Shown here piece after piece: positions 6,727 through 25,207 of a stretch of DNA of 31,871 bases (position 1 is its first letter; every line of letters starts with the position of its first letter). Under the pieces are notes generated by a model. The model saw only the letters and a program-made list of their open reading frames with translations. It did no database searches and was not told where the DNA came from. Position numbers and translations under genes: made by a program. This DNA comes from a virus (taxonomy: Duplodnaviria > Heunggongvirae > Uroviricota > Caudoviricetes), in IMG/VR virus record IMGVR_UViG_2548876962_000012; one strand, written 5' to 3'.

Positions 6727-6931
6727 TGTCCTGATTTGTACTCACTCATTTTCCGACTGACAATTTACTTAGCCCAAAAGCTATCAAATCTGACAGTCTG
6801 CTTCAGACAAAGAGCGGTCATTAAATGATAGAAGATTTTATTTCATTTTTGTGCCAGAAGCTGCCGCTCAGTAACTCCCGCAATAAATGGTGCGAAGAAT
6901 GAGCGTCTGGCGACCGAATTTCATTACCTTG

Positions 6932-7900
6932 TTATATGCCATTTTCAAGATCTGCGATTAGGTCAAAGCATAGCGATTTATAATCCTTTACGATCTTCGG
7001 CCGAATGGTTATTGAATGATATTTCAGCAACGCAAGGGCGAATGAGGAAAAATACAGCCAGAACCAGTCATCTTCCGGTAAATTGACATCTTGCACAGTC
7101 GCCGACCAACGCCCGTAAATGGGAGGATGAGTCTCTGAACCCGCGAGACGGTTTCTTCCTGTTGCGAAAAGGATAAAGGCGAATGCTAGAGCGATCCCCA
7201 TCATACGCTTCATCCTAACCTTTTCCGGGGGATACCCACTGCTTGCGGCGTACTCATCGATCTTGGATATCATCATATCCTTAGCGAACTGATCACACAG
7301 ATATTCTTCGTCCTTCGGGTCTTCCGGTGCATTTCCTTCAACTGAGAAAATTACGTGCTTCAGTTCATGTAAAAATACATATGCCGTAGCCATGCACATA
7401 AGATCATATACTGCAGCGCTCTCTGAATCTGACGGCCTACCCTTCTCAGGCTCAGGAATAGCCACTGGCCATTCAAAGTCGTCTTCATGAAATGCAGTGC
7501 TCAGGTCTTTCACTGCATCAAGTATCGACTTGAAGGCTTCATCTTCTGCTGCCTGATCTGGAATCTTGTTGATTTTGTTTATGTCGAGAGTGGCACCGCA
7601 TGATTTGAACAATTCAATCAACGAACAATAACAATGTAACGCCTGCATTCCCGCATAACTGAAAAGCCATATTTGACGCATTGATCTGCTGGTGTACTGG
7701 ATTGCGGAGAATCCTCCAGCATCTAAGTTAAATCCTTCGCGGTCACCAATCAGTCGGAACTGGGCATCATAATCGTTAGCGATAGATTCAATCTCTGATG
7801 CTCTCTCAGGAACAACACCGTCAAAAAGTTTTCGAACATTGTCTGTCGTTTCCACTAGTCCTCCTATGGCATATAAAAGTGCGTTATACCGGCCCCGCAA
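6932..7900 (-). CDS. Cargo protein with HExxH motif, putative zinc metallopeptidase, 322 aa (Z/fun position)
   Basis: AT-rich ORF between G and FI; HELKH at residues 178-182 followed by acidic residues; one hydrophobic segment (GIALAFAFILFATG); TTG start at 7900 preceded by a strong SD (AAGGAAG, 6-nt spacer); own downstream terminator. Confidence 0.6.
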   Translation of the reverse strand: MRGRYNALLYAIGGLVETTDNVRKLFDGVVPERASEIESIANDYDAQFRLIGDREGFNLDAGGFSAIQYTSRSMRQIWLFSYAGMQALHCYCSLIELFKSCGATLDINKINKIPDQAAEDEAFKSILDAVKDLSTAFHEDDFEWPVAIPEPEKGRPSDSESAAVYDLMCMATAYVFLHELKHVIFSVEGNAPEDPKDEEYLCDQFAKDMMISKIDEYAASSGYPPEKVRMKRMMGIALAFAFILFATGRNRLAGSETHPPIYGRWSATVQDVNLPEDDWFWLYFSSFALALLKYHSITIRPKIVKDYKSLCFDLIADLENGI

Positions 7901-8080
7901 GGTCGGCTTCCTTGCAAGCCAGATTACCTTGTAAGGTCAGAAAGTCCAATGACAACTTTATGTACGAAGCAGTAATTGAGCTACTACGTATAAATGACCG
8001 CTCCTGGCACAGAGCGGCCTCCCAGATTCGGCTTTACTCTGTGCCATAGATATGTAAGCTCCCACCAGAGCTCATACAAC

Positions 8081-8608
8081 TTATTGCGGCATTTCCGGCC
8101 ATTCAGGATTTGCAGGATCCACACGACTGACCAGAACGCTGTAGCGTTCCCATGTTTTAAGTCGGCTACGCTCCTCATCTGTTGCCATATTCAGCCTGAC
8201 AGCACGCTCCAGCGGCAAAATCACGGATTCAGCATCTGCAAGAAGTCTGGCTTTCCGATTTTCTGCCTGCTGCTGCAATTCCTCTGCCGTATAAATGCGT
8301 TTAATCACTTTGCCGTCCTTAAACATCCAGTTCCCTGAAATGTCCGCCCGTCGGTTAGCAGTAATATCCGCCACTTCAACAACACTTAATCCATCCGGTC
8401 TGATAGCTGTCACATCCTTTTCCACATAGTGGATGATATTATCTTTGTCGTACGCTATTTTTATCGTGTCATCAGCAAAATACTTTTGTTCTTCGTACCA
8501 GTTCTTACCATCTTCTGAAAAAAACCAGACAACATCAAAGTCCTTTGTCAATTGATATTGTTCAACCGTTTTTGGATTACCCGCCGAAATATTTTTTAAA
8601 TGCTGCAT
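8081..8608 (-). CDS. G: Tail fibre assembly chaperone gpG, 175 aa
   Basis: 175-aa ORF immediately downstream of H; length and position of P2 G. Confidence 0.85.
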
Positions 8609-8611
8609 AAA

Positions 8612-10861
8612 TTATACCTGCGCCACGTTATACCATGTCCCGTTAATGTATTTCTGCACCGGTCTGTAATATACGCCACCAATGTTATCGGCAGAGTTTG
8701 AGCCGGTATCCTGAACAATAATGCCGGTATATACGCAACCTGACGGAGCCTGATGCGTCCATGTAGTACCATTATTTGCTGGTTTATATGTAGATGCACC
8801 GCCCAGCCGCATGTCTCTCATATAACGTGAATCTGACTCAGTTTTGGTGTATGCACCAACATCTCCCGCTGAGGGTTTATGAGCAGTTGTATATAGTTGC
8901 GCCCATCCAGACCAGTTAGCATCTGTGGTATCTCGTCGGGAGCGAATATATGCCGGAGCATGAGCACCGCTGGTTCCACTCCAGCCAATAAGTAACTCAC
9001 CCTCTCCTACTGCGGTTACGCCAGTGAGATGAAGCACATTACCATAGGCTGTTGGGTAGCCATTGTTGTATGCCTCATACATCTGAACACCTGGTGTCCC
9101 CTTTACGCTCCCACCTAATGCAGTAACACGGTTTCTGGATACCAGTGTATTAATATTTATATCGGCAGAGCCATCAAATCTGACACCATTAATATTTCTT
9201 GCGTTCGCTAACTTCGTTGCTGTTGCAGCATTTCCTGAAAGGCTGGAAATAAATGGATGTGAACAGTAATAACCACGTCCATTTTTAAAATCCAGAATAG
9301 CCTGTGCGTTCGTGCTTTCTGTAGCGGGATTAGTTGCCCCCCACTTATATGTCGTCTGACCGACGACATAATCCTCTGTCGGAACAATAACCGTTAGCCC
9401 TTCCTCTGCAAGAATTTGTACAGGGAAAGCTCTGGCTTCAACATAAAAAACACTACATACATCATCATCTTTCAGGCTTGTAACAATGGAATGAATTGAA
9501 CGCTCATTAGTCTGATACGTCCAGAAATAACCTGCCGCATATGAACCACGATCAGTCCAGCCTCCGGGCATAACCATGCCATTAAACTCGCAGTTATTCA
9601 TTACATAATCGCTGTTATAACAACCAGTGGAAATAACGACGCGGGATGCCATTTCTCCTGAAAGGCTGGCAGCACGGCGAAAGATAACGGGATACCACTT
9701 CCCGGCAACGACATTTGCAGGGGCTGCAAACGAATACTTTCGCATTCCCTTTTTCTTATCCACTTCACCTTTGCTGTAAACATTAATGTTACTCAGGAAG
9801 CGTCCTTTATCAGGAATATCCGCACCGTTCTGATCTTTCTGAAGACGTTTTTCAGCATTGTCATAGGCAGACTTCACCGCTTTTGGTGTTGCGGCCAGCG
9901 TTTCAGAATCACTGTTGGTGGCGCTACTGAGCTGGACAAGCCCTTTTCGCGCCGTGGTGGCATCCTGTGCAGTGTATTTCCCGTTAGCAAGGTCATACGC
10001 GGCCTTTACCGCCTTTGGCGTTGCCGCAAGCATTTCAGAATCGCTGTTGGTGACGCTACTGAGCTGGACAAGACCTTTTCGCGCTGTGGTGGCGTCCTGT
10101 GCAGTGTATTTCCCGTTAGCAAGGTCATATGCTGCCTTTACCGCTTTCGGCGTTGCGGCGAGCGTTTCAGACGTGCTGTTAGTCGCACTACTGAGCTGAA
10201 CAAGGCCTTTTCGCGCGGTGGTAGCGTCCTGTGCGGTATATTTCCCGTTAGCAAGGTCATATGCGGCCTTAACCGCTTTCGGCGTTGCAGCCAGTGTTTC
10301 AGACGTGCTGTTGGTCGCACTGCTTAACTGAGTAAAACCTTTTGCGGTCAGCGAGGCGTCAGGGTGACGTCGTGACTGTTCATGTTCTGCAATTTTGTCA
10401 TCAACGTAATCCTGCGTTGCCATCACCGTTGTGGTGTCAATGGTCAGCTCCACTGAGGCCACACTGCTGACGATGATGACCATGCGGCAGGTCTGCGAAC
10501 GCCCTGAGCCTTCGGCAAGAGCTGGCTTATAACTTTCGGCCATGTTCGCCACGGCAATTAACGTTCCAGCATCATCGTACAGGCCAAGCTCACGCATCCA
10601 GAAACCGCCCACCTCCGGCGGAATAACCAGCTCTGCGATAATATAATTACTGTTTCGTTTGTCCTGGCTGATTTTGTTCAGCGCATGTCGCCAGACTTCG
10701 TGGATAAGCCCGGTCTGTCCGGCATCCGGGACAGGCAATTTACCACCGCCATCCCCGACGGCCATCGTGGTAATGTTGACCTTCCGCCCTCCCGGTGCGG
10801 TTGCCGCTGCCAGCTTTGCTGCACCGGCAGTGGTGATAACGGTTTTGAATTTTGTGCTCAT
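8612..10861 (-). CDS. H: Tail fibre protein gpH, 749 aa
   Basis: N-terminus MSTKFKTVITTAGAAKLAAA typical of P2-family H; four tandem 44-aa tail-fibre repeats; a variable C-terminal region. Confidence 0.9.
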   Translation of the reverse strand: MSTKFKTVITTAGAAKLAAATAPGGRKVNITTMAVGDGGGKLPVPDAGQTGLIHEVWRHALNKISQDKRNSNYIIAELVIPPEVGGFWMRELGLYDDAGTLIAVANMAESYKPALAEGSGRSQTCRMVIIVSSVASVELTIDTTTVMATQDYVDDKIAEHEQSRRHPDASLTAKGFTQLSSATNSTSETLAATPKAVKAAYDLANGKYTAQDATTARKGLVQLSSATNSTSETLAATPKAVKAAYDLANGKYTAQDATTARKGLVQLSSVTNSDSEMLAATPKAVKAAYDLANGKYTAQDATTARKGLVQLSSATNSDSETLAATPKAVKSAYDNAEKRLQKDQNGADIPDKGRFLSNINVYSKGEVDKKKGMRKYSFAAPANVVAGKWYPVIFRRAASLSGEMASRVVISTGCYNSDYVMNNCEFNGMVMPGGWTDRGSYAAGYFWTYQTNERSIHSIVTSLKDDDVCSVFYVEARAFPVQILAEEGLTVIVPTEDYVVGQTTYKWGATNPATESTNAQAILDFKNGRGYYCSHPFISSLSGNAATATKLANARNINGVRFDGSADININTLVSRNRVTALGGSVKGTPGVQMYEAYNNGYPTAYGNVLHLTGVTAVGEGELLIGWSGTSGAHAPAYIRSRRDTTDANWSGWAQLYTTAHKPSAGDVGAYTKTESDSRYMRDMRLGGASTYKPANNGTTWTHQAPSGCVYTGIIVQDTGSNSADNIGGVYYRPVQKYINGTWYNVAQV
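9850..10375. repeat. Four tandem 132-bp in-frame repeats inside gene H
   Basis: Period exactly 132 bp (landmark tttcaga at 9900, 10032, 10164, 10296); encoded 44-aa unit KGLVQLSSATNS(T/D)SETLAATPKAVKAAYDLANGKYTAQDATTAR. Confidence 0.85.
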
Positions 10862-10871
10862 TATTCCTCAC

Positions 10872-11402
10872 TTATCCGGGGTAAACCGTAATTACATCGC
10901 CGTCGTAAGCCACACCACCGGCGAACAGGTAGCCGGGAATGTCCCGGGTAATGTTCAGGCCAATAAGATGACGACTTGCAGGTTTGGCATCAGCAATAAG
11001 CCGTTCCATTTCCTGATACATTGCCTCTGTGATGCCACTTTCCAGTACACCAATATCAAGCCGGAAGGTGCCGGGCGGGTCACTGTTTTCCCACCACTCC
11101 GTCACGTTGATGAGATAGCCGAGCGGCTCCACCACGCGTCGGATTGCGCCGACAGTGCCTTTATGACAATGAATGAAATACGCATCGCGAATAACGGCGC
11201 GTTTTGTCGCTTCCGGCCACTTTTCATCCCACCTGTCGACCGAAAACGCCCACGCCAGCCACGGCAGCAGATTTGCCGGACAGGTGTCCGGGTTCCACAG
11301 CTCACGAATACTGACCGGCGTTTTTTCAATTTCCGCACAGGCTTTTGCGGCAGCAATTTCAAGCGGTGATGAGCCGGTCGGCAGCAGGCGCGAATCACTC
11401 AT
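10872..11402 (-). CDS. I: Baseplate assembly protein gpI, 176 aa
   Basis: 176-aa ORF between J and H; P2 I length and position. Confidence 0.85.
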   Translation of the reverse strand: MSDSRLLPTGSSPLEIAAAKACAEIEKTPVSIRELWNPDTCPANLLPWLAWAFSVDRWDEKWPEATKRAVIRDAYFIHCHKGTVGAIRRVVEPLGYLINVTEWWENSDPPGTFRLDIGVLESGITEAMYQEMERLIADAKPASRHLIGLNITRDIPGYLFAGGVAYDGDVITVYPG

Positions 11403-12303
11403 CCGAGCCTCCGGTCACGACGCGGTATTCGGTACAGAAAGACGCCTGCGTATTGTTGAGCACGATGTCGGCCAGTGGTGCGGCCAGCTCGACACGCTGC
11501 ACGCCTTCCACATGCAAAGCGGCATAAATGGCAGACAGACGGATGTCACGCCCCAGCCGGTGTTGTGCCGTGATGTACGCTTCCAGTTTTTTCACGGCAG
11601 CAGCGCGGATGGGTTCGCTTTCGGGGCCAGGGTAAAGGTAAAGCGTGGCGTTTATCTGGTATTCAACGATGGCGGCAGACTGCACGGTCACGCGGTCGGC
11701 CACTGGCCTGACGTCCTCGCCATTAAGGGCGTTACGCACCACAGCCAGCAGGTCTTCGGATGCGACACCGTTATTTTCACGTGACAGCACAGAGATGGTG
11801 ACACAGGCCGGAGACGGACTGGTGACAGAGATATCCGCGACACGCCCGTCGGCACTGCGGCCATGATACTGATAGGCTCCCACCGACCCGGCGACGCTTA
11901 AGCCTTCAAACGCCTGCTGAATACGCAGACGATAATCCGTGTCAGATTCCATCACTGCCGGTGTCGGCGGGATGGTCGAATCATCTGCCGGGGTGATAGT
12001 CAGGCGCGTGGTGTTGTAATTGGCACCAATCACATCAAGGTCATTACCGGCTGCACAGGCCAGCATCACCGCCCGTGCGGCCTCATTCACACGCTGACGC
12101 CAGATAAGCTCGCGATAAGCATTTTCCTCCAGCAGTTTGACGAGAGGCTCGGATTCCAGCGTCAGGGTACGGGCGACCGCCTCCTGCTGGTCTTCCGGGT
12201 AAAGGGAAATCAGTGTCGCCTTGCGTTCGGCAAGAATGGTTTCAAAGTCCAGCTCCTCGAGCACATCCGGTGCGGGTAGCTGGTTCAGGTCGATAATCGG
12301 CAT
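11395..12303 (-). CDS. J: Baseplate protein gpJ, 302 aa
   Basis: 302-aa ORF; P2 J length and position; overlaps the I start by 8 nt. Confidence 0.85.
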   Translation of the reverse strand: MPIIDLNQLPAPDVLEELDFETILAERKATLISLYPEDQQEAVARTLTLESEPLVKLLEENAYRELIWRQRVNEAARAVMLACAAGNDLDVIGANYNTTRLTITPADDSTIPPTPAVMESDTDYRLRIQQAFEGLSVAGSVGAYQYHGRSADGRVADISVTSPSPACVTISVLSRENNGVASEDLLAVVRNALNGEDVRPVADRVTVQSAAIVEYQINATLYLYPGPESEPIRAAAVKKLEAYITAQHRLGRDIRLSAIYAALHVEGVQRVELAAPLADIVLNNTQASFCTEYRVVTGGSDE

Positions 12304-12307
12304 GGTT

Positions 12308-12655
12308 TCAACTCACAGGGATGGTTAACGAAAGTGGCTGGCCGGTGTCGTTGTGCTGGCCGGTTAACGTGACCGTCATTCGCCCGTCAAAACTGCGCGC
12401 CGTGGTGACAGATGACAGGGTGACGCGGGGTTCCCATTTCAGTACCGCCATGTAACAGGCGACCTTAATCTGCAACTCAAGCGCCGGGGTCTGCGGCTGG
12501 TCAATCATTGACGCCAGCAACGAGCCGTAATCACGACGCATCACCCGTGAGCCGACCGGTGTGCGCAGGATATCGCCGATACTCTGGCTGATATGCTCAA
12601 GGTCAGTGACAGTCAGGCCATCACTGCGATTCATTCCGAGATAACGCGCTGTCAT
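12308..12655 (-). CDS. W: Baseplate wedge protein gpW, 115 aa
   Basis: 115-aa ORF; P2 W length; ATG start overlaps the V stop (ATGA). Confidence 0.85.
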   Translation of the reverse strand: MTARYLGMNRSDGLTVTDLEHISQSIGDILRTPVGSRVMRRDYGSLLASMIDQPQTPALELQIKVACYMAVLKWEPRVTLSSVTTARSFDGRMTVTLTGQHNDTGQPLSLTIPVS

Positions 12656-13293
12656 TTTGTCCCCTGTGTCCAGTTTTCTCCTGACTTAACACCACCGTGA
12701 CCGTGGTCATCCACCTGAACGCCGTTAGAAGTGAATTTCCCGTCGGTATGCTCGATGTTGCCGTGCATCTTCCCGCCCTTCTGCACTTCCAGCGTGCCGG
12801 TAGTCAGCTTGTTGGTGCAGACCACCTCCGGTGTGTCCAGGGTGATGCGAGTTGACGCTTTCACCATGACCACCGGCACCGTGGCGGTAACAGAATCAGA
12901 AGCCGTCACGCTGGCCGTTTTAATTCCGCTTGCCGTGAGCGCACTGGTTTCGGGTTCATACTCAATCACCGCCCCGTCAGGGAAACGGATGTACAGGGCA
13001 TCCGCCGACGCAGACGGCGCGGGGTTATCACCGGAATAAATCCCCGGCAGAACAAACGCCGTGTCGAGTTCGCCGCCCACGGACAGAATCAGCACCTGCT
13101 CCCCCACCGAAGGTGCCCACCATGTGCGTGAACGTCCGGCACGATGGGTCAGCCACTGAAGCCAGTCAGTGCACATGCCGCCGGTCTGCACACGGCAGCG
13201 ACCGGCTTTAAGGTTGGTTTCGACGACAAGGCCAGTACGAATCATGTTGCGCAGTGCGCGCGCGAGTTCCTGAATATTTGCGAGAGTGTTCAT
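12652..13293 (-). CDS. V: Baseplate spike protein gpV, about 213 aa
   Basis: Start assigned to the ATG at 13291-13293 (MNTLANIQELARAL); the longer track ORF begins at a TTG six codons upstream. Confidence 0.8.
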   Translation of the reverse strand: MNTLANIQELARALRNMIRTGLVVETNLKAGRCRVQTGGMCTDWLQWLTHRAGRSRTWWAPSVGEQVLILSVGGELDTAFVLPGIYSGDNPAPSASADALYIRFPDGAVIEYEPETSALTASGIKTASVTASDSVTATVPVVMVKASTRITLDTPEVVCTNKLTTGTLEVQKGGKMHGNIEHTDGKFTSNGVQVDDHGHGGVKSGENWTQGTK

Positions 13294-13376
13294 GCATGTG
13301 AGATTGCACAATATATAAAAGTTATGCTATCTGGATTCATTTGTAGAACCACCAGACAACATTCAAGGAGAGCGTA

Positions 13377-14162
13377 ATGGTCAGCTATAATGTGACTAAT
13401 GTGTGGGAGCTAATCGTCTTGTATCTTTTGGTCTTTGTAGTATTAGCATTTTTTAGCTTTGGTAAAAGTAACCTTATGAGGCTTATTGCACATTATTTCA
13501 AATTTGGATATTCAGATAAAAAATTAAAAAGACTGGACCGCGAGTGGCGCGACATTCAACTATTTAAAATAATTAACGGAATCAATGTATCAGGCATCAA
13601 AGATGTGAAAATGATACAGCAGGGGTTGATTGATGGAAAACTAAAAACATCGGATTTTTTCCTTACTCGCTTCTGGGGAGACATAACAGAACCGCCATGC
13701 ATCACAAAAACAATGAGTGCAGTCCTGGCCGGAATTCTTTATATTACCTTCGCATGTTGCATACACAACGAGCAATCTGCCATAGTAGAGGATGCCATAG
13801 CCATACCATATAAAAATATGATGTACCATGTTTATAATGACAAGGTTCTTTTGTTCTCCGACAATAAAACAGATAAGTTCTATAAAGCGTTTAGCATTGC
13901 CGATTGCAAGAGACTGCAGAACACTTTTGTAACAGACACACTTCCTGCAATCGCCTGCAATAAGCTCTTACAGCTAAACGAGGAGGACTCCGAATGGTTA
14001 AGTCAGGAGATTAAAGATAATAACAGCCACAGAAAAACATTATTAATAATATCCCTCGTCTATTTCACTTCAGGTCTGGTTATACTTCTGTCATATACAA
14101 AATTCCTTTACGCCAATAAAAAAGTTGTAGAATACAAATCATCAAATAAAAACCACTCATAA
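13377..14162 (+). CDS. Cargo membrane protein, three predicted TM helices, 261 aa (orf30 position, opposite strand)
   Basis: Very AT-rich ORF on the opposite strand to all flanking late genes; ATG with SD AAGGAG at 7-nt spacing; hydrophobic segments at the N-terminus, middle (MSAVLAGILYITFACCI) and C-terminus (LLIISLVYFTSGLVILLSY). Confidence 0.6.
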   Translation: MVSYNVTNVWELIVLYLLVFVVLAFFSFGKSNLMRLIAHYFKFGYSDKKLKRLDREWRDIQLFKIINGINVSGIKDVKMIQQGLIDGKLKTSDFFLTRFWGDITEPPCITKTMSAVLAGILYITFACCIHNEQSAIVEDAIAIPYKNMMYHVYNDKVLLFSDNKTDKFYKAFSIADCKRLQNTFVTDTLPAIACNKLLQLNEEDSEWLSQEIKDNNSHRKTLLIISLVYFTSGLVILLSYTKFLYANKKVVEYKSSNKNHS

Positions 14163-14168
14163 TTCTCT

Positions 14169-14203
14169 AAACATTGAGCGACCAGCACAGCCGCTCAATG
14201 TTT
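14169..14203. terminator. Hairpin between the convergent cargo membrane gene and gene S (possible bidirectional terminator)
   Basis: 12-bp perfect inverted repeat aaacattgagcg / cgctcaatgttt with an 11-nt loop, followed by TTTAATT on the plus strand. Confidence 0.45.
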
Positions 14204-14233
14204 AATTGCGCATCAGCCTCTGCCTAGATAAAA

Positions 14234-14686
14234 CTAACGCTCAAGGTGAGCCAGGATAATCTCTTCAATCATCTGCACATCCTCACCGGTAAAGCCGAGC
14301 AGAGGACGCGTCGGATAATCAATTTTCTTACCGTCTTTCCGGGTTTCTTCCGACAGACCGAACTGATGCACACTGGCGATTTTCGGTGACTTTCCGCCGT
14401 AAAACTCCATTGATGCCTGTTCCGGGCTGGCGCGGATATGCAAAAAACGACTGGTGATAAGTTTCGCAAACATTTTTCGCTTAACACGACCGGTCTTTTT
14501 TCTGGCGCTCTGCTGCTGGCGTGGTGCGTAGGGTGTGCCGTCCGGGGCTTTCTGTGCCATCACCCGGCGCTGCTGACTCTGCCGCAGATGTTTCGCCAGT
14601 TCGGTGCTCAGTCGCCGACGCCCTGATGGTGACAGTGATTCAATCAGCCCGGTCAGCCGGTCTTCAAAACGCTTAAACTCATTCAT
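14234..14686 (-). CDS. S: Tail completion protein gpS, 150 aa
   Basis: 150-aa ORF; P2 S length and position; overlaps the R stop. Confidence 0.85.
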   Translation of the reverse strand: MNEFKRFEDRLTGLIESLSPSGRRRLSTELAKHLRQSQQRRVMAQKAPDGTPYAPRQQQSARKKTGRVKRKMFAKLITSRFLHIRASPEQASMEFYGGKSPKIASVHQFGLSEETRKDGKKIDYPTRPLLGFTGEDVQMIEEIILAHLER

Positions 14687-15146
14687 CCCACTTGCTCACC
14701 AGTTCGCCATTGATATAAAGCTCCATCGGGCGGGTGACCGGCTCCGGCGGCGGAGGTTCCGGGATATTCTTCACATGCAGTGCGCCGTCCACCTCACTGA
14801 CCAGCGTGCGCTCGGTCAGCATCAGGCTGATGCTGATATCAAAGCTGCTGTCATTGTTGATGTCCGCATAAAACGTGAAGCCCTTTTTCTGGCCTTCGTC
14901 GGTGGTCATGATGTCGGGCTGATTTTCCCGCAGCCACGCCAGCACCGGCACGATGAGCAGGTCAAAATCACCGGTAAAGTCGGTCACAATGACATTGAGC
15001 GTGTAACGCTTTTCGAATGACAGCGACGTCGCCAGCGTGGAGGCAATACTCCCGTTATCCACGAATATCCGCAGCATCTCGGGACTGGTTTTCAGCACCG
15101 TGACGGCATCAGTCAGCGCCCTGCGCAGGCTGTCGGGTTTGAGCAT
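14679..15146 (-). CDS. R: Tail completion protein gpR, 155 aa
   Basis: 155-aa ORF; P2 R length and position. Confidence 0.85.
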   Translation of the reverse strand: MLKPDSLRRALTDAVTVLKTSPEMLRIFVDNGSIASTLATSLSFEKRYTLNVIVTDFTGDFDLLIVPVLAWLRENQPDIMTTDEGQKKGFTFYADINNDSSFDISISLMLTERTLVSEVDGALHVKNIPEPPPPEPVTRPMELYINGELVSKWDE

Positions 15147-15399
15147 CGTTTTCGTCCTGACAGTGTTTAATCATTTTTACCTGGCTGGCACAGCGTGCCA
15201 GCGCGTTCTCAAGCAGCCGGATATCGGCACTTAAATCGCCGTTCTTCTGCGGGTCACTGCCCGGCATCGGGCAAAGACTCACTTTCGGGCAGGCGTTGTG
15301 GACAATCACTGGCGTCTGCGCAGGCCGGGCGCTGGTGCAACCGGCGCACAGCATCAGGCAGGTCAGCACCGTACCAGCGGCGAAAATCTTCGTTTTCAT
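15109..15399 (-). CDS. lysC: LysC, Rz1-like outer-membrane lipoprotein spanin, 96 aa
   Basis: Starts MKTKIFAAGTVLTCLMLCAGCTS (signal peptide with lipobox-like LCAGC); lies in an alternate frame overlapping the 3' part of lysB and the start of R. Confidence 0.7.
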   Translation of the reverse strand: MKTKIFAAGTVLTCLMLCAGCTSARPAQTPVIVHNACPKVSLCPMPGSDPQKNGDLSADIRLLENALARCASQVKMIKHCQDENDAQTRQPAQGAD

Positions 15400-15679
15400 T
15401 GAGTAACCTCGTGATGGTTTTCTCGCGCTGTGCTTCACGCTTCGCGGCGTTCTCCAGTTCCTGACGCAGTGCCACCTGCGCCAGCTCGTTTTTGTCTGCC
15501 CTGGTGATGGCAACATGAAGCTGATTTTTCAGCATGGTGATGGTCGTCTGCTGTTCACTGGCGACGTTATTCGCCCTGTCCAGCGAGGCGCGCAGGCTGG
15601 CATTTTTGTGTTTCACCAGAAACAGACCGGCCACCGCCAGCGATAACAACACGACCAGCACAATCATCAGCTTTGACAT
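15254..15679 (-). CDS. lysB: LysB, Rz-like inner-membrane spanin, 141 aa
   Basis: N-terminal TM helix (LMIVLVVLLSLAVAGLFLV) followed by a coiled-coil region; 141 aa as in P2 LysB. Confidence 0.8.
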   Translation of the reverse strand: MSKLMIVLVVLLSLAVAGLFLVKHKNASLRASLDRANNVASEQQTTITMLKNQLHVAITRADKNELAQVALRQELENAAKREAQREKTITRLLNENEDFRRWYGADLPDAVRRLHQRPACADASDCPQRLPESESLPDAGQ

Positions 15680-16092
15680 AGTTCCCGCCCCTCAAGACGC
15701 TGACGACAGGCTTTACGTATCAGCCGGAAAAACAGCGACGCCACAAGATAAATCAGCGCGGTAAAAATCCACCCGGCAGCGACCAGCGAGATAAACGTCG
15801 CCACCATCACCACCAGAGCCGCCGCCCGTCTGCGCCACGGCACCGGCTGCAAAAACAGCGACGTGACAATCTTCACGGCCAGCGATTCCGGCGGCAGCTC
15901 CCGCCCGTAGAGTTCCAGCACATACTCCGTGGCATACACGCCGACACCACCGGCAACCACACAGATAACCGTCGCCAGAATCGCCCAGGTGGCGACAAAA
16001 CTGACGGCCACGCTCTGCGGGTAAATCAGGGACAGTGCCAGCATCAGCGCCAGCGACACGTTCAGCATCAGTGAAAGGGATAATTTCTTCAT
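15667..16092 (-). CDS. lysA: LysA, lysis-timing membrane protein, 141 aa
   Basis: Multi-TM 141-aa ORF between K and lysB; P2 lysA length and position. Confidence 0.8.
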   Translation of the reverse strand: MKKLSLSLMLNVSLALMLALSLIYPQSVAVSFVATWAILATVICVVAGGVGVYATEYVLELYGRELPPESLAVKIVTSLFLQPVPWRRRAAALVVMVATFISLVAAGWIFTALIYLVASLFFRLIRKACRQRLEGRELCQS

Positions 16093-16106
16093 GGTGTTTA
16101 CTCCGT

Positions 16107-16604
16107 TTAAGCCGGTACGCCGCCGGCGGTACGCCAGACGGTGACCAGTTTTTCCAGTGAATGCTCACGCTGACCGTAACCGGCACCCGGCAGGGACGCC
16201 CAGATATTGCGACAGCGTGAAATGGCGCGCTCAATGCGTCCCGCCCGGATGTCATCCAGTGCACCGCGTTCGCGGATCAACTGAATGGCGAGCCTGTCCT
16301 GTGACAACGGACTGAAATCCGGCAGGGCAAGCTGTTTGCGGTAGTGCGGCCAGAACAGGTAAAGCTGCTGATAGCGACCGGAGGCCGTGGATTTTTCACC
16401 GCAACGGTTAAACACCTTCGCCGGTCGGCCATGCGCGAACGGGTGGTCACTGTAGTCGGTGAAAATTTCCGGCTTTCCGTCCAGTCCGGTGACTATCACG
16501 TCATAGCCCCGGTTTTTCGTCAGCGGATGATTCGCCGTCCCTTCGGACACGGCCAGCATGTCGAGAAAGGCGGCGATATTCTGATGCGTGTTAATTACCG
16601 GCAT
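16107..16604 (-). CDS. K: Endolysin gpK, 165 aa
   Basis: 165-aa ORF following the holin; P2 K length and position; start overlaps the holin stop (TAATG). Confidence 0.88.
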   Translation of the reverse strand: MPVINTHQNIAAFLDMLAVSEGTANHPLTKNRGYDVIVTGLDGKPEIFTDYSDHPFAHGRPAKVFNRCGEKSTASGRYQQLYLFWPHYRKQLALPDFSPLSQDRLAIQLIRERGALDDIRAGRIERAISRCRNIWASLPGAGYGQREHSLEKLVTVWRTAGGVPA

Positions 16605-16885
16605 TACGGTTTCCCCCTGCCCTTAAAGCGGCGCTGAATGGCAATCTCAATCACCTGATAACCGGCGATACCCAGCATGGAACCGATGCCGCACACCGCA
16701 GGCAGTGACAGGTCAGGAAACTGCACCAGAACAACACCGGCAACCATCGAGACAAAACCGCCGAGCAACATGCGCCCGATAAACAGACGCGGGGTGATGG
16801 GTTCACCACCGGCAAGCACCTTGCCGACAACAATCAGCACCCCAATCATGAAAAGCGACAGGACGCTTTTTTCTTCTGCTGTCAT
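16604..16885 (-). CDS. Y: Holin gpY, 93 aa
   Basis: 93-aa ORF with hydrophobic TM segments and a charged C-terminus, immediately upstream of the endolysin. Confidence 0.85.
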   Translation of the reverse strand: MTAEEKSVLSLFMIGVLIVVGKVLAGGEPITPRLFIGRMLLGGFVSMVAGVVLVQFPDLSLPAVCGIGSMLGIAGYQVIEIAIQRRFKGRGKP

Positions 16886-16888
16886 GCG

Positions 16889-17092
16889 TTACTCCCACAG
16901 ATTGACAGTTTCAGCCACGGGCGCGGTCTGAACGTCGGGCAGTTCGACGGCGGTGCCGTGTGGCAGCACCGCACCCAGTTCAGCCAGTCCCGGATTTGCG
17001 GCGAGCACGGTCTCAACCACGCCCTCAGTGCGCCCGTAATACCGGACACAAATGGCGTCGAGCGTGTCGCCCTGTAGCGCAAAGGTCTTCAT
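16889..17092 (-). CDS. X: Tail protein gpX, 67 aa
   Basis: ATG at 17090-17092 (MKTFALQGDTLDAICVRYYG); overlaps the L stop; the longer track ORF is an upstream extension. Confidence 0.8.
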   Translation of the reverse strand: MKTFALQGDTLDAICVRYYGRTEGVVETVLAANPGLAELGAVLPHGTAVELPDVQTAPVAETVNLWE

Positions 17093-17601
17093 CAGATTTG
17101 ACTCACGATGCAGCGCGGCTTGTCCTGGATACGCGCCACCGCCCAGCGCATATCCCGCCACAGTTCATCAATGGTGCTGTCAATGCTGTCGGCCTTCTTG
17201 TCGCCTTTCGCACTGGCATCCACGCCGCGATAACGCTCATAAAGCGACGCGGTCGCCATCGCACACACGGCGCGCTCGTAGTAAAAAACTTTGATGCTTT
17301 CACCGTCGATGTCGTCCGCCGGAACGTCCGCCAGACGCGTAAAACCGGCGGCAATTTTCTGTTCGCGGTACTCGTACAGCTCCGCATTCGTCTCCGCCAT
17401 GCCTGACTTGATGGCCTCACGCAGACGGGCGGGGGCGACGGTCTGCTCAAGGCGCATACGTTCCCGGACGCGCTTCGGGTCGATATCGGGAAAAAAGAAC
17501 GTGTTTTTAATCACCGGCTCGTCGCCTGCCGGTTGCGGGATGACCACCGTACCCTCACCGGATACAGGAGCCTCCTTTCGCGGAATAATCAGCGTCATCA
17601 T
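17092..17601 (-). CDS. L: Capsid completion protein gpL, 169 aa
   Basis: Start taken at MMTLIIPRKE (ATG 17599-17601), giving 169 aa as in P2 L. Confidence 0.85.
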   Translation of the reverse strand: MMTLIIPRKEAPVSGEGTVVIPQPAGDEPVIKNTFFFPDIDPKRVRERMRLEQTVAPARLREAIKSGMAETNAELYEYREQKIAAGFTRLADVPADDIDGESIKVFYYERAVCAMATASLYERYRGVDASAKGDKKADSIDSTIDELWRDMRWAVARIQDKPRCIVSQI

Positions 17602-17700
17602 GACTACCTCTGAAAAGTCGGGCGGTGGACGCCGGTGCAGTGTCAGGTGATTCACCCGCACTGACCGGCGTGCCGCACTGGCGCGGGGCGCATTCGGTTG

Positions 17701-18438
17701 TTAACTGGCTTTCTTTTTCGGGCGTCCACGTTTTGCCGGTGTCACGCTCCGGGTCTTACGCGGGGCGCGGGTGACCGCTTTTGGCTCCGGCTTCGGTTTC
17801 AGCTCCCGCTCCAGTCGTTCAATCTCTTTTTTGACGCCTGCCTGACAGTCGAGCTGTGTCGCACGTTGCAGGTGCGCCAGCGCACCTGCGGCATCACCAG
17901 CGTCACGCAGAAACAGACCGGTGATTTTGTGCAGCTTTGCGCGCACTTCATCAGGCATATCAGCAGCGGCGGTCAGTTCAAGGGTGTCCATCAGCAGGCG
18001 GGTATCCACAGACTCACCGGCAGCGTGGGCGCGCATGGCCGCGAGCGCCACCTCCTCGGTGAACATGTACGGCGGGGTGCGGCGGTGTTTACCCGGCATG
18101 GTCAGACCGTACTTCAGGGCATAACGGGCAATCTCCAGCGCACCGGCAATATCGCCGGTATCCAGACGCCACAGCATGACCGTCATCAGAATGTCATCCT
18201 GTGCGCCTTTGCCCTGCTCCAGCACGCCGTTCACCCACGGCAACCAGAACGGCAGCAGTTCGCGCTTTTTCGCGGCCTTCAGCTCTTTTGAATAAATCGC
18301 TTTCAGTGTGCGCTGGTCTGCGGCGAGCTTAACCAGCATCTGCTCATAGACAGTTGCATGTCGCAGCGGGGCGGCTTCCCGCTGCGCGGTCATCGCTGCC
18401 GAGACCCGCATCATGTGGCGCTGTGCGGGACTCGTCAT
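17701..18438 (-). CDS. M: Terminase small subunit gpM, 245 aa
   Basis: 245-aa ORF between N and L with a basic C-terminus; P2 M position. Confidence 0.85.
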   Translation of the reverse strand: MTSPAQRHMMRVSAAMTAQREAAPLRHATVYEQMLVKLAADQRTLKAIYSKELKAAKKRELLPFWLPWVNGVLEQGKGAQDDILMTVMLWRLDTGDIAGALEIARYALKYGLTMPGKHRRTPPYMFTEEVALAAMRAHAAGESVDTRLLMDTLELTAAADMPDEVRAKLHKITGLFLRDAGDAAGALAHLQRATQLDCQAGVKKEIERLERELKPKPEPKAVTRAPRKTRSVTPAKRGRPKKKAS

Positions 18439-18441
18439 CAG

Positions 18442-19515
18442 TTACGCTCCCGGCTCTGCGGTCGCCTTAGCCGGTGTGGAGAAATCACCGACCTTGATTT
18501 TTTCCACCAGACAACCGGCGGCGTAGTCTTCCACCACGTAATCAATGTTCATTGACTCGTAGTTCTCCACGCGGTCGAGTTTCGGGTTTTCCACAATCAC
18601 GCGGCGATGGCTGTCATCCATGTAGTAGATGGACAGGTTTTCCAGCTTCGTGATGAGCATCGCATCCGCCGGGAAGTACGGGACGCGTACCGCCGGCAGG
18701 TTACCGATGCGTTTCTGACTGATGATGACGTCAGCGGCCAGCATTTCGCTGTTGTCCTGCTCTTTGTTGACGATGGGGAAATACTTGTCCGCCAGTAGCT
18801 GACGCCCCACAATCACCACAAGGTCAGGGTCTTCCTGATACCAAGGTTCAATCAGGTTGTTGGTCGCATCCATCACCAGTGCATCGAGGCTTACATAATC
18901 ACCGCCCTTACCCACGCGGATGACCTCAGAGGTGGTGCGGCCTTCCTCGTCAGTGACCTTGCTCATCACGCGCGCCGGGGCTTCATTGCGGTATTTCTGC
19001 AGCCAGCCGACTGCCACATCCTGCAGCATCGGATTGCTGCTGCGGTCAGAGGTTTCGGCACGCTTCACGCCGTTAAAACCGGCCATGATGAAATCAAGGG
19101 ACTGGCGTTTGATAATGGCGTTACGGATACGGAGCTGGAAATCCTGATAACGCGCCCACAGGTCCAGCGTTTTGTAGCGGATATAAAAATCGAAGTTAAT
19201 CTGGTCGCATTCGTACTTGTTTGACGCCAGCTTCGAGAAGTCCTTCGGCTGACGCTCGGTGCCACCGGCGGTGTCGGTGGTGCTGGCGATGGAGCCGGTG
19301 ACACCAATACCAATTTTTTCCCCTTTCATTTCGCTGACCGGCACAATGTTGATGCGGGTCAGAAAGTCAGAGGACTCCTGCATGGTGTTCATCAGGGTCT
19401 GGGTGACCGACGGTTCAACGGTGAATTTTTTCGACACATCACCGGCGTCGATGCCGTTCAGTTCGGCAACACGGGACAGGTAGGCATTAAATTTAAAGCG
19501 GGTTTCCTGGCGCAT
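18442..19515 (-). CDS. N: Major capsid protein gpN, 357 aa
   Basis: 357-aa ORF; P2 N length and position. Confidence 0.9.
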   Translation of the reverse strand: MRQETRFKFNAYLSRVAELNGIDAGDVSKKFTVEPSVTQTLMNTMQESSDFLTRINIVPVSEMKGEKIGIGVTGSIASTTDTAGGTERQPKDFSKLASNKYECDQINFDFYIRYKTLDLWARYQDFQLRIRNAIIKRQSLDFIMAGFNGVKRAETSDRSSNPMLQDVAVGWLQKYRNEAPARVMSKVTDEEGRTTSEVIRVGKGGDYVSLDALVMDATNNLIEPWYQEDPDLVVIVGRQLLADKYFPIVNKEQDNSEMLAADVIISQKRIGNLPAVRVPYFPADAMLITKLENLSIYYMDDSHRRVIVENPKLDRVENYESMNIDYVVEDYAAGCLVEKIKVGDFSTPAKATAEPGA

Positions 19516-19682
19516 AGTTTTTCCTGAAATTAAGGGTTAATCGTGAAGGTTTTTCCCGGACTGACTGACGCCGGTCAGCAGTTCGTCATCAGGGCGTCAC
19601 CGCCACCACCGGTGGCCTTGCTGCGGCGCTGCTGGGTCAGACTTTCGGTGTGGTCGAGACTGTTTTTCAGGCGGGTGAATGC

Positions 19683-20429
19683 CTAGCTGGTTTCATCCGC
19701 CCTGTCAGTCACCTCCTGCTTAAGAGCGGAAAAGGCAGTTTCCACCTCAGCGAGGCGCTGCTCAGTGGCGCTCAGTTTTTCCTGCACATGTTCAGCAACA
19801 GCGGTCACCGCTTCATGCACGTCATTCAGACGGGCGTCATCGCTGGCCTGTTTGCGGCCAAAAATGGATTTCACCTTTTCGGTCAGGGCGGTGAACACGG
19901 TTTCAGGCAGGTCTTCAAATTCCAGCTCAACAGGCGTTGCCACTGAAATCAGGTTTTCAGGGCTTAATTTGAAGCGGTTCAGGGGGTTGTGTTTTGCCGT
20001 GCGGCAGAATTCCAGGTATTCCGTGCCGAGGCTTGCCGGGTCATCGGTGACGGCCAGCCCCACCAGATAACATTTGCCGGTGTTGGCAAAGTTCGGCTGA
20101 ATTTCCATTGAGGTATAGACCTTCTGCGCGGCCTTGTTCATCGCGATAAGGTCATCGGTCGGGGTGATTTTCGCAAACAGCGCCCATTTGCCTTTCAGCG
20201 CCGAATCGTCGTCAATCTTTTCGGCCTTCAGTTCGACCACATCGCCATAACGCTTAAAAATACCGTCAGGCAGGATGCCGCGCAGATGTTCCAGGTTAAT
20301 GCGGCAACCATAGACACGCGGGTCAAAGGTTTCGGCCATTTCCTGAATATCCTGCGCACTGATGACACGCCCGTCACAGGTGTCACCCTCAACGCCGATA
20401 CGAAAGAATTTTGAGACTTTTTTTGCCAT
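19683..20429 (-). CDS. O: Capsid scaffold/protease gpO, truncated at codon 249 by an in-frame TAG (full-length frame would be 19575-20429, 284 aa)
   Basis: ATG at 20427-20429 (MAKKVSKFFRIGVEGD); TAG at 19683-19685; the same frame continues AFTRLKNSLDHTESLTQQRRSKATGGGGDALMTNC to a TGA at 19575-19577, which restores the P2 gpO length of 284 aa. Confidence 0.8.
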   Translation of the reverse strand: MAKKVSKFFRIGVEGDTCDGRVISAQDIQEMAETFDPRVYGCRINLEHLRGILPDGIFKRYGDVVELKAEKIDDDSALKGKWALFAKITPTDDLIAMNKAAQKVYTSMEIQPNFANTGKCYLVGLAVTDDPASLGTEYLEFCRTAKHNPLNRFKLSPENLISVATPVELEFEDLPETVFTALTEKVKSIFGRKQASDDARLNDVHEAVTAVAEHVQEKLSATEQRLAEVETAFSALKQEVTDRADETS

Positions 20430-20602
20430 TGTCAGGAGTCCTGAATAGTGATTAGAGGAGTCACATGTCGGCATCAGTTTCCCGACGATACGCATCCTTC
20501 GCCATCAGTCCCGGATGGCTTATCACTGACACAACAGCACCTTAGCGAATCGCGGGGCGCGACTCAGTAGCCTTGCCGTGTATTCATCACGGCGAGGTAT
20601 TC

Positions 20603-22375
20603 ATGACCATCACCACAGACACCACTCTTTTACACGACCCGCGTCGTCAGGCGGCGCTGCTGTACTGGCAGGGGTTTTCCGTGCCGCAGATTGCCGCCAT
20701 GTTGCAGATGAAACGCCCGACGGTGCAGAGCTGGAAACAGCGCGACGGCTGGGACAGCGTTGCCCCCATCAGCCGTGTCGAAATGAGCCTGGAAGCGCGG
20801 CTGACCCAGCTCATCATCAAACCGCAGAAAACCGGCGGTGACTTCAAGGAAATTGACCTGCTGGGACGCCAGATTGAACGACTGGCACGGGTCAACCGTT
20901 ACAGCCAGACCGGCAACGAGGCAGACCTTAATCCGAACATCGCTAACCGCAACAAAGGCGGGCGTCGCAAACCGAAAAAGAATTTTTTCAGTGACGAGGC
21001 CATCGAAAAGCTGGAGCAGATTTTCTTTGAGCAGTCTTTCGAATATCAGTTGCACTGGTATCGCGCCGGGCTTGAGCACCGCATCCGCGATATCCTGAAA
21101 TCCCGCCAGATTGGCGCGACGTTTTATTTTTCCCGCGAGGCGCTGCTGCGCGCCCTGAAAACCGGTCATAACCAGATTTTTCTGTCGGCCAGTAAAACGC
21201 AGGCGTATGTGTTCCGCGAATACATCATCGCCTTTGCCCGGCTGGTTGACGTTGACCTGACCGGTGACCCGATTGTCCTGGGCAATAACGGCGCAAAACT
21301 GATTTTTCTCGGCACCAACTCCAACACCGCACAGAGCCATAACGGCGACCTGTACGTCGATGAGATTTTCTGGATCCCGAATTTTCAGGTACTGCGTAAG
21401 GTGGCATCAGGTATGGCCTCACAGAGTCACCTGCGCTCGACCTATTTCTCCACCCCGTCCACGCTGGCGCACGACGCCTACCCGTTCTGGTCGGGTGAAC
21501 TGTTCAACCGGGGTCGCGCCAGCGCCGCCGAACGCGTGGAAATCGACGTCAGTCATAACGCCCTTGCCGGAGGTCTTCTCTGTGCGGACGGCCAGTGGCG
21601 GCAGATTGTCACCATTGAGGACGCGCTGAAAGGCGGCTGCACGCTGTTCGACATTGAGCAGCTCAAACGTGAAAACAGCGCCGACGATTTTAAAAACCTG
21701 TTCATGTGTGAATTTGTTGACGACAAAGCGTCGGTGTTCCCGTTCGAGGAGCTGCAACGCTGCATGGTCGACACGCTGGAAGAATGGGAAGACTATGCGC
21801 CGTTTGCCGCGAATCCGTTCGGCTCCCGCCCGGTATGGATTGGTTACGACCCGTCACACCGTGGCGACAGTGCCGGATGCGTGGTGCTGGCACCGCCGGT
21901 GGTGGCCGGTGGCAAATTCAGAATACTTGAGCGTCACCAGTGGAAAGGCATGGACTTTGCCACTCAGGCTGAATCCATCCGCAAACTCACCGAAAAATAC
22001 AACGTCGAATACATCGGTATTGATGCCACCGGCCTCGGTGTCGGCGTGTTCCAGCTCGTGCGCTCGTTCTATCCCGCCGCGCGCGACATCCGCTACACGC
22101 CGGAAATGAAAACCGCAATGGTGCTCAAGGCAAAAGACGTCATCCGCCGTGGCTGTCTGGAATATGACGTCAGCGCCACCGACATCACCAGCTCGTTTAT
22201 GGCTATCCGCAAGACCATGACCAGCAGCGGACGCAGCGCCACCTATGAGGCCAGCCGCAGCGAGGAAGCCAGCCACGCCGACCTCGCCTGGGCGACCATG
22301 CACGCCCTGTTAAATGAGCCACTCACCGCCGGTATCAGCACTCCGCTGACATCCACCATTCTGGAGTTTTACTGA
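20603..22375 (+). CDS. P: Terminase large subunit gpP, 590 aa
   Basis: ATG at 20603 with SD GAGGT; 590 aa as in P2 P; stop overlaps the Q start (TGATG). Confidence 0.9.
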   Translation: MTITTDTTLLHDPRRQAALLYWQGFSVPQIAAMLQMKRPTVQSWKQRDGWDSVAPISRVEMSLEARLTQLIIKPQKTGGDFKEIDLLGRQIERLARVNRYSQTGNEADLNPNIANRNKGGRRKPKKNFFSDEAIEKLEQIFFEQSFEYQLHWYRAGLEHRIRDILKSRQIGATFYFSREALLRALKTGHNQIFLSASKTQAYVFREYIIAFARLVDVDLTGDPIVLGNNGAKLIFLGTNSNTAQSHNGDLYVDEIFWIPNFQVLRKVASGMASQSHLRSTYFSTPSTLAHDAYPFWSGELFNRGRASAAERVEIDVSHNALAGGLLCADGQWRQIVTIEDALKGGCTLFDIEQLKRENSADDFKNLFMCEFVDDKASVFPFEELQRCMVDTLEEWEDYAPFAANPFGSRPVWIGYDPSHRGDSAGCVVLAPPVVAGGKFRILERHQWKGMDFATQAESIRKLTEKYNVEYIGIDATGLGVGVFQLVRSFYPAARDIRYTPEMKTAMVLKAKDVIRRGCLEYDVSATDITSSFMAIRKTMTSSGRSATYEASRSEEASHADLAWATMHALLNEPLTAGISTPLTSTILEFY

Positions 22376-23409
22376 TGAGCAAGAAAAAAGGGAAAACACC
22401 GCAACCTGCGGCAAAAACAATGACCGCCAGCGCCCCGAAAATGGAGGCATTCACCTTTGGTGAGCCGGTGTCGGTACTCGACCGCCGTGACATTCTGGAT
22501 TACGTCGAGTGCATCAGTAACGGCAGATGGTATGAGCCACCGGTCAGCTTTACCGGTCTGGCAAAAAGCCTGCGTGCTGCCGTGCATCACAGCTCACCGA
22601 TTTACGTCAAACGCAATATTCTGGCCTCGACATTTATCCCGCATCCGTGGCTTTCCCAGCAGGATTTCAGCCGCTTTGTGCTGGATTTTCTGGTGTTCGG
22701 TAATGCGTTTCTGGAAAAGCGTTACAGCACCACCGGTAAGGTCATCAGACTGGAAACCTCACCGGCAAAATATACCCGCCGTGGCGTGGAGGAGGATGTT
22801 TACTGGTGGGTGCCGTCCTTCAACGAGCCGACAGCCTTCGCGCCCGGCTCCGTGTTTCACCTGCTGGAGCCGGATATCAATCAGGAGCTGTACGGCCTGC
22901 CGGAATATCTCAGCGCCCTTAACTCTGCCTGGCTGAATGAATCAGCCACGCTGTTCCGCCGCAAGTATTACGAAAACGGCGCACATGCCGGATACATCAT
23001 GTACGTCACCGATGCCGTGCAGGATCGCAACGATATCGAAATGCTCCGCGAAAACATGGTGAAGTCGAAAGGCCGCAACAACTTTAAAAACCTGTTTCTC
23101 TATGCCCCACAGGGGAAAGCCGACGGCATTAAAATTATCCCGCTCAGTGAAGTGGCAACGAAGGACGATTTTTTTAATATCAAAAAAGCCAGCGCCGCTG
23201 ACCTGCTGGACGCGCACCGCATCCCCTTTCAGTTGATGGGCGGCAAGCCGGAGAACGTCGGGTCGCTGGGCGATATTGAGAAAGTGGCAAAGGTCTTTGT
23301 CCGCAATGAGCTTATCCCGCTACAGGACAGGATCCGCGAGATAAACGGCTGGCTCGGCCAGGAAGTCATCCGCTTTAAAAACTACTCACTGGACACTGAC
23401 AACAGCTGA
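22375..23409 (+). CDS. Q: Portal protein gpQ, 344 aa
   Basis: 344-aa ORF adjacent to cos; P2 Q length and position. Confidence 0.9.
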   Translation: MSKKKGKTPQPAAKTMTASAPKMEAFTFGEPVSVLDRRDILDYVECISNGRWYEPPVSFTGLAKSLRAAVHHSSPIYVKRNILASTFIPHPWLSQQDFSRFVLDFLVFGNAFLEKRYSTTGKVIRLETSPAKYTRRGVEEDVYWWVPSFNEPTAFAPGSVFHLLEPDINQELYGLPEYLSALNSAWLNESATLFRRKYYENGAHAGYIMYVTDAVQDRNDIEMLRENMVKSKGRNNFKNLFLYAPQGKADGIKIIPLSEVATKDDFFNIKKASAADLLDAHRIPFQLMGGKPENVGSLGDIEKVAKVFVRNELIPLQDRIREINGWLGQEVIRFKNYSLDTDNS

Positions 23410-23414
23410 ACATC

Positions 23415-23436
23415 GCCGCCTGCGGGCGGCTTTTTT
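23415..23436 (+). terminator. Rho-independent terminator after Q
   Basis: gccgcc-tgcg-ggcggc hairpin (23415-23430) followed by TTTTTT (23431-23436), 6 nt after the Q stop. Confidence 0.7.
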
Positions 23437-23579
23437 ACACCCCGTCATCACGCCCTCATACGCTCACCACCGCACAAAACACCCCGCAGACACACCAACG
23501 GCCCCGGCGAACAATCTAAACGCCATCACGACGCGCTCAGACGCTGAAAAAATAAAATCAGCACCACCGGCAGCGCGCA

Positions 23580-23598
23580 GTGCTTTCCCCGCCTCGCC
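23580..23598. other. cos: cos cohesive-end site (19 nt)
   Basis: gtgctttccccgcctcgcc is the reverse complement of GGCGAGGCGGGGAAAGCAC, the P2 cohesive-end sequence as I recall it; located next to Q as in P2. Confidence 0.7.
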
Positions 23599-23801
23599 TG
23601 CGCGCTTCATGGGGCGATTTTGATGCAGGTGCATGAGCTCTCTCAGACTGAACAAAAGCTAGCAACGCCCAAACAATCACGATGTCCAAAACGCATGCAT
23701 TTTCATGCAAGGAAGAGGATTATGTCGATACGTTAAAAAACTACCAAAGTAAATTATAAGCATACACTAACAACTCAAAAAAATGCCCTCCTCACAAATC
23801 A

Positions 23802-24254: not shown

Positions 24255-24258
24255 TTTT

Positions 24259-25161: not shown

Positions 25162-25185
25162 TCATTCATACCCAATTATTATCTA

Positions 25186-25207
25186 GATGATATTACTGAT
25201 GATATTA
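25186..25207. promoter_or_regulatory. Perfect 10-bp direct repeat (gatgatatta x2, 2-bp spacer) in the promoter region of the cargo operon
   Basis: Copies at 25186-25195 and 25198-25207, 25 bp upstream of the EEP gene start, in the A / cargo intergenic region. Confidence 0.4.

Follow-up and report, generated by a model that had tools for sequence, protein, structure and literature searches.

The lysis cassette of a P2-like Escherichia coli prophage: a canonical module with overlapped spanin genes and a conserved non-consensus lipobox

Five closely packed frames on the minus strand of a viral DNA raise the question of whether they form a complete and intact lysis cassette, from the holin to a two-component spanin, and whether the last of them, lysC, encodes an outer-membrane lipoprotein. 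The DNA analysed here (31,871 nucleotides, the whole of which is called the window below) is a P2-like (Peduovirus) prophage of 31.9 kb bounded by ogr (4-219, minus strand) and the integrase gene (30876-31871, plus strand), with its late genes on the minus strand. In a DNA alignment, window positions 10136-23598 are 96.2% identical to positions 13459-1 of P2 (NC_001895), and the DNA around the lysis genes (15000-17000) is 98.0-98.6% identical to that of many P2-like phages, including L-413C and P2 itself. A P2-type late region from O to S is present in 1702 of 5426 complete E. coli genomes, about a third; the exact prophage is absent from the complete E. coli genomes of the collection searched, where the best match reaches 98.7%. 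Neither the orf30 homologue nor the pair of genes at the old/tin locus was matched by PADLOC. With a probability of about 0.95, the locus is the canonical lysis cassette of a P2-like (Peduovirus) E. coli prophage, transcribed late from the Ogr-activated promoter PO as part of the O-to-S operon. The genes with their family membership and overlaps, the conserved LysC signal, the promoter region and the activator gene are all present and intact.

Table 1. Genes, junctions and signals of the lysis region and of its operon (window coordinates)
Feature	Position	Strand	Size or spacing	Remarks
Y	16885-16604	minus	93 aa	
K	16604-16107	minus	165 aa	
lysA	16092-15667	minus	141 aa	
lysB	15679-15254	minus	141 aa	
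lysC	15399-15109	minus	96 aa	
R (tail gene)	15146-14679	minus	155 aa	
S	14686-14234	minus	150 aa	
L/X junction			1-nt overlap	
X/Y junction			3-nt gap	
Y/K junction			1-nt overlap	TAATG
K/lysA junction			14-nt gap	
lysA/lysB junction			13-nt overlap	
lysB/lysC junction			146-nt overlap	lysC in +1 frame
lysC/R junction	15109..15146	minus	38-nt overlap	3' end of lysC with start of R
R/S junction			8-nt overlap	
LysC signal peptide (residues 1-20) and predicted lipidated Cys21	15337..15399	minus		lipobox L-C-A-G followed by C
Late promoter PO region (Ogr activator site and transcription start)	20469..20539	minus		P2 features 3057-3087 and 3127
Hairpin inside lysC	15184..15202	minus		P2 8399-8417, "putative transcription attenuator" of the O operon
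Amber codon in scaffold/protease gene O	19685-19683	minus		TAG vs CAG in P2, codon 249 of 284

The initial annotation had placed a complete five-gene lysis cassette at 15109-16885, and this description holds: all five frames lie on the minus strand at the lengths known from P2, with neither a frameshift nor an internal stop codon, and the limits are exact: the lysC stop codon ends at 15109 and the start codon of Y begins at 16885. The names and functions given to the genes agree with the annotated P2 reference and with curated family models, and the TAATG at which Y and K share a nucleotide was likewise seen as described. An open frame alone is nevertheless weak evidence for a gene here, because spurious ORFs of 100-180 aa are frequent in this GC-rich region (for example, a 183-aa ORF at 15713-16264). 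The case for the individual genes therefore rests on homology and conservation.

For Y, the Pfam model PF04550 (Phage_holin_3_2) gives a full-length match (1-86) with 143.6 bits against a cut-off of 25 (E-value 2.6e-42), and the protein also falls into PHROG 175, a holin family. This model score goes together with the other features of the PF04550 holins, which are at least two hydrophobic segments (8-26 and 36-57), a charged C-terminus (the basic tail RRFKGRGKP) and a gene that adjoins the endolysin gene, in this case K. Only one residue, Q93P, separates Y from P2 gpY.

The endolysin K has no Pfam or NCBIfam match at the thresholds used, so that its identity had to be settled by a search of PDB sequences and by the PHROGs. 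The PDB search returned the lambda R "lysozyme" (1AM7/3D3D) with an E-value of about 1e-43 over residues 9-163, while PHROG 90 is an endolysin family and a homologue of K is named "glycoside hydrolase family 104" by PGAP. In the alignment, VSEGT of K is matched to WSEGT of lambda, which brings Glu21 of K opposite Glu19 of lambda R, the catalytic residue of the SEGT motif. Homology over the whole domain and the aligned SEGT motif point to K being an endolysin related to the lambda R lytic transglycosylase (GH104). The single difference from P2 gpK, R68C, lies in a stretch where K and lambda R diverge, and this exact variant is found on 126 contigs. A hydrophobic segment was looked for in K and none was found; the export of the enzyme should therefore depend on the holin.

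LysA scores 115 bits with NF038378 (cut-off 40), and PF28015 (LysA) matches an identical gene in L006. The protein is 95% identical to P2 LysA, with seven differences, and has hydrophobic stretches at 5-23, 28-46 and 92-125; for P2 LysA, four transmembrane domains have been reported (PMC3091744). LysA passes through the membrane several times, and its gene stands between the endolysin gene and those of the spanin. The label "endolysin" that LysA bears in RefSeq and in PHROG 162 is a mislabel. The P2 record describes lysA as "nonessential; affects timing of lysis", and the literature names the P2 protein an antiholin (PMC3091744).

According to the P2 annotation, the lysis genes belong to the O operon, which is transcribed from PO and runs from O through S. 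The PO region of the window has two mismatches to P2 in the 171 nt compared, none of them in the activator site, and the Ogr protein is 100% identical to that of P2. The hairpin inside lysC, GCTGGCACGCTGTGCCAGC, is identical to its P2 counterpart and has an 8-bp stem; the 56 nt around it have a predicted fold of -17.4 kcal/mol, no T run follows on its 3' side, and it may act as an attenuator. The terminator after S is also conserved with respect to P2.

The one lesion in this operon lies upstream, in gene O. It had been stated that the lysis module is intact despite a truncated O, and both parts are borne out: the lysis genes are whole, and O is interrupted by one amber codon, a single C-to-T change of CAG to TAG that leaves 248 of 284 residues. 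In gpO, residues 1-141 form the protease domain and residues 195-284 the C-terminal scaffolding domain, reported as an absolute requirement for the assembly of P2 procapsids (PMC7552001). The amber codon costs the scaffolding domain 36 of its 90 residues and leaves the protease domain in place. As the lysis genes lie downstream of O in the same operon, the amber codon could also lower their expression by transcriptional polarity. This opens the way to a reading in which the cassette is intact yet idle, with a prophage that is head-defective and dying and with lysis genes that are simply a part not yet decayed, possibly of reduced expression. Such a state is unlikely: the promoter, Ogr and every lysis gene are intact, of the 40 P2 proteins with a match in the window, O alone shows an unambiguous nonsense change (a stop codon also interrupts the match to orf81, which is only 74% identical and ambiguous), and the distance from the amber codon to the start codon of N is only 167 nt, which is probably short for strong polarity. 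The lesion looks recent because the truncated O protein occurs in only two assemblies, and other decay is absent. An idle cassette would moreover concern the activity of the genes and not their identity, and is compatible with the main reading, that of a canonical P2-type cassette.

The same lesion allows a further speculation. The prophage retains the protease domain of gpO together with a full set of genes for tail, packaging and lysis, for which reason it may be something other than plain debris: lacking the C-terminal scaffold of gpO, it might still bring about lysis and set free P2 tails without heads, in the manner of a tailocin, or only help satellites of the P4 type, whose external scaffold Sid can replace the scaffolding function of gpO in capsid assembly. 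This has very little probability.

The remaining two genes encode the spanin pair. LysB scores 170 bits with the equivalog model TIGR03495 (phage_LysB, cut-off 92.75), belongs to PHROG 89 (Rz-like spanin) and differs from P2 LysB at six positions. Its only hydrophobic segment is a transmembrane stretch near the N-terminus (4-22, mean hydropathy 3.12), which, together with the TIGR03495 match, identifies the protein as the inner-membrane spanin subunit. LysC scores 122 bits with the equivalog model NF038368 (P2_Rz1, cut-off 27) and 54.6 bits with PF23793 (LysC) in Pfam. With six differences it is 94% identical to P2 LysC, and three of them (P25R, P28Q and P34H) replace prolines just past the lipidation site; the exact protein is found on 65 contigs. 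In the periplasm, LysB has two cysteines (119 and 125), and mature LysC has four besides Cys21 (C37, C43, C70 and C80), which are conserved in 59-61 of 61 sequences. The P2 family has the same counts in the spanin table curated by Kongari et al. 2018, and both partners have periplasmic cysteines available for intermolecular disulfides.

The lipoprotein signal of LysC needs a closer look, as it is here that the formal evidence is divided. The N-terminus reads MKTKIFAAGTVLTCLMLCAG followed by CTS, and combines a basic N-region (Lys2 and Lys4), a hydrophobic core (5-17) and Cys21, which is preceded by Ala and Gly (positions -2 and -1) and has Thr at +2. Apart from R2K, with Lys here and Arg in P2, this is the signal of P2 LysC. 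It does not satisfy any of four lipobox patterns that were applied (PROSITE PS00013, G+LPPv2, the DOLOP consensus and one in CPT style), because position -3 is Cys, the sole deviation. Conservation speaks for the signal all the same. Among the 61 full-length LysC cluster representatives (63-97% identity), Cys21 is kept in 60, position -1 is Gly, Ala or Ser in all, position -4 is Leu in 60, position +2 is Thr in all, and the deviating Cys at -3 is itself present in 58, even though the lysB frame runs through this stretch as well. Under the sorting rule of E. coli, the lack of Asp at +2 predicts transport to the outer membrane.

If the failed patterns were taken at face value, LysC, with its non-consensus lipobox (Cys at -3), would stay unlipidated and would be secreted or tethered to the inner membrane, and would therefore not be an outer-membrane spanin subunit. 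That only one position deviates, and that this position is conserved alongside a near-invariant Cys21, makes this highly improbable. The discovery paper of lysC reportedly found that lysB and lysC of P2 complement lambda Rz/Rz1 mutants, which also counts against an unlipidated LysC. In the spanin table of Kongari et al. 2018, the P2-family member is entered with the signal MKTKIFAAGMVLTCLMLCAG, the lipobox LCAG and a mature start of CTS, so that LCAG followed by Cys is accepted there; the same authors list further non-consensus spanin lipoboxes, one of which, AWAC, was shown to be functional. In addition, the overlapped spanin system of P2 is described as experimentally tested (PMC6139136). 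Because conservation and the curated table agree on Cys21, failure of the patterns is not taken as a refutation. The lipobox proposed in the initial annotation is supported by the P2-like signal, the conserved cysteine and the curated entry, and strict patterns do not recognise it: the prediction of an outer-membrane lipoprotein signal on LysC is favourable in substance but formally inconclusive.

The description of where lysC lies relative to its neighbours needs correcting. The spanin genes had been called nested, which is wrong, since lysC begins inside lysB and ends 145 nt past its stop codon, and this makes the architecture "overlapped", as in P2. It had also been said that lysC lies in an alternate frame over the 3' half of lysB and the start of R; the alternate frame (+1) and the start of R are correct, whereas the "half" is in fact the last third (146 of 426 nt). 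A stretch of 107 nt of lysC lies outside both lysB and R, and lysB, lysC and R, one after the other, each use a frame of their own. The "overlapped" class has P2 as its type example and is set apart from the "embedded" class, to which lambda Rz/Rz1 belongs (PMC6139136). The five-gene module of P2 and the lysB/lysC/R overlap have already been described (PMC3091744), and PGAP notes the layout as "substantially overlapping although not fully embedded". The start of lysC was also considered in a longer version of 135 aa (ATG at 15516), which was rejected: the homologues of 96 aa lack its 39 extra residues, and it is the ATG at 15399 that is preceded by GAGG, 7 nt upstream, similar to the site that the spanin table gives for its P2-family member. 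That lysC is a chance frame in GC-rich DNA and no gene, as the numerous spurious ORFs nearby might suggest, is scarcely credible and, as far as sequence evidence reaches, refuted by the NF038368 match far above its cut-off, by the 170 LysC homologues that keep the signal, the cysteine pattern and the length, by this Shine-Dalgarno sequence and by the annotation of lysC in the P2 reference.

For the canonical cassette, expression, lipidation and lysis activity are expected from homology with P2 and lambda, and the same homology suggests how the five products would act. Holin Y would accumulate in the inner membrane and form holes at a set time, through which the soluble endolysin K, a putative lytic transglycosylase of the lambda R type, would reach and cut the cell wall. 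The multi-pass LysA, usually named the antiholin, would tune the timing. Disruption of the outer membrane would come last and would be brought about by LysB as inner-membrane anchor and LysC as outer-membrane lipoprotein, a two-component spanin whose second gene is placed in the "overlapped" layout typified by P2.

The genes, their order, their overlaps and their mechanism are all already known. As a textbook P2 lysis module the cassette has little discovery value, and the practical value of the finding lies in annotation. Pipelines often overlook lysC in its complete form of 96 aa, signal peptide included, or begin it too late, LysA frequently appears as an "endolysin", and the P2-family lipobox with Cys at -3 slips past strict pattern-based detection of lipoproteins. 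Only two points are of mild note: a conserved lipobox that departs from the consensus, and lysC starts that are often misannotated.

The closest known system is the Y-K-lysA-lysB-lysC cassette of P2 (NC_001895, 6716-8492), which has the same five genes in the same order and of the same lengths between X and R. The junctions are also the same (TAATG at Y/K, 13 nt at lysA/lysB, 146 nt at lysB/lysC and 38 nt at lysC/R), the last of them identical to the overlap between P2 lysC (8202-8492) and R (8455-8922), and the hairpin in lysC is shared. The lysis proteins are 94-99% identical to those of P2, with 1-7 amino-acid differences each; the differences are point substitutions only (one each in Y and K, seven in LysA and six each in LysB and LysC), and all of the variants in the window already circulate in E. 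coli. The Yersinia phage L-413C and other Peduovirus members (vB_YpM_22, P24C9 and 11W) show 98.2-98.6% DNA identity over the whole 2-kb query; the L-413C record leaves out lysC altogether, and in the record of PhiR44_1 only a 52-aa fragment from its 3' end is annotated. The more distant S-R-Rz/Rz1 cassette of lambda differs in several respects. Its Rz1 gene is fully embedded in Rz, whereas lysC runs past lysB into R, its holin and Y belong to different families, and it has no separate gene of the LysA type, the lambda antiholin being the product of a second start codon in S. The logic is nonetheless shared, as both cassettes combine a holin, a lytic transglycosylase and a two-component spanin, with K being homologous to lambda R.

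For lysC, annotation pipelines often place the start at Met16 (81 aa) or still later (52-57 aa), by which the signal peptide is lost, or leave the gene out altogether. Among 120 cluster representatives, the start lies at or near Met16 in 35, and the records L005, L002, L006 and L001 in the table provide examples of late-started or omitted lysC. A naming problem affects lysA (window 15667-16092), whose product is called an endolysin both by RefSeq phage records and by PHROG 162, the phage protein family to which it is assigned. LysA is a multi-pass membrane protein devoid of an enzyme domain; the label is an annotation error that has been widely propagated.

Features of the prophage window and lysC annotations in related records
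Feature	Record	Coordinates	Strand	Length	Remarks
Tail-fibre gene H	window	8612-10861	minus		
Gene O, scaffold/protease	window	20429-19575	minus		
Lit-related ORF	window	6932-7900	minus	322 aa	PADLOC Lit E 1.8e-14; Pfam Peptidase_U49 E 3.8e-8
P2 orf30 homologue	window	13377-14162	plus	261 aa	between S and V, opposite strand
Endonuclease/exonuclease/phosphatase-family protein	window	24259-25161	minus	300 aa	PF19580, PF03372
Protein at old/tin locus	window	23802-24254	minus	150 aa	no family match
lysC	L005	5552-5797			
lysC	L002	2734-2892			
lysC	L006	11163-11321			
lysC	L001				no lysC feature

Gene O carries a single mutation, CAG to TAG, which places an amber codon at position 249 of 284 (window 19683-19685, minus strand). 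Of the 40 proteins of phage P2 (NC_001895) with a match in the window, no other shows a clear nonsense change, and only two public assemblies contain this one. Head assembly should be blocked by it, with the tail, packaging and lysis genes unaffected.

Within tail-fibre gene H, a 132-nt unit is repeated 3.5 times in tandem (window 9860-10315, 87% matches) and encodes additional tail-fibre repeats. The H protein measures 749 aa as opposed to 669 aa in P2, and divergence from P2 is seen both in its C-terminal part and in gene G. The orf30 homologue, which has no match in Pfam or PADLOC, is only 80% identical to the P2 copy, whereas its neighbours for lysis and tail completion, all lying to one side, reach 94-100% and V, lying to the other, 86%.

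At the old/tin locus, a two-gene unit (window 23627-25351) substitutes for the P2 genes; neither of its proteins is matched by PADLOC, and the two may form an undescribed defence pair. The Z/fun locus, where P2 has a phage-exclusion gene, is likewise replaced (window 6803-7998); the gene in its place encodes a relative of the Lit protease and is an anti-phage cargo gene other than that of P2. Most of the late genes are more than 93% identical to P2, but in the cox, C and int region (window 30023-31871) identity falls to 53% for the integrase, 43% for repressor C and 35% for Cox; at such low identities, the prophage would be predicted to differ from P2 in both immunity and integration type.
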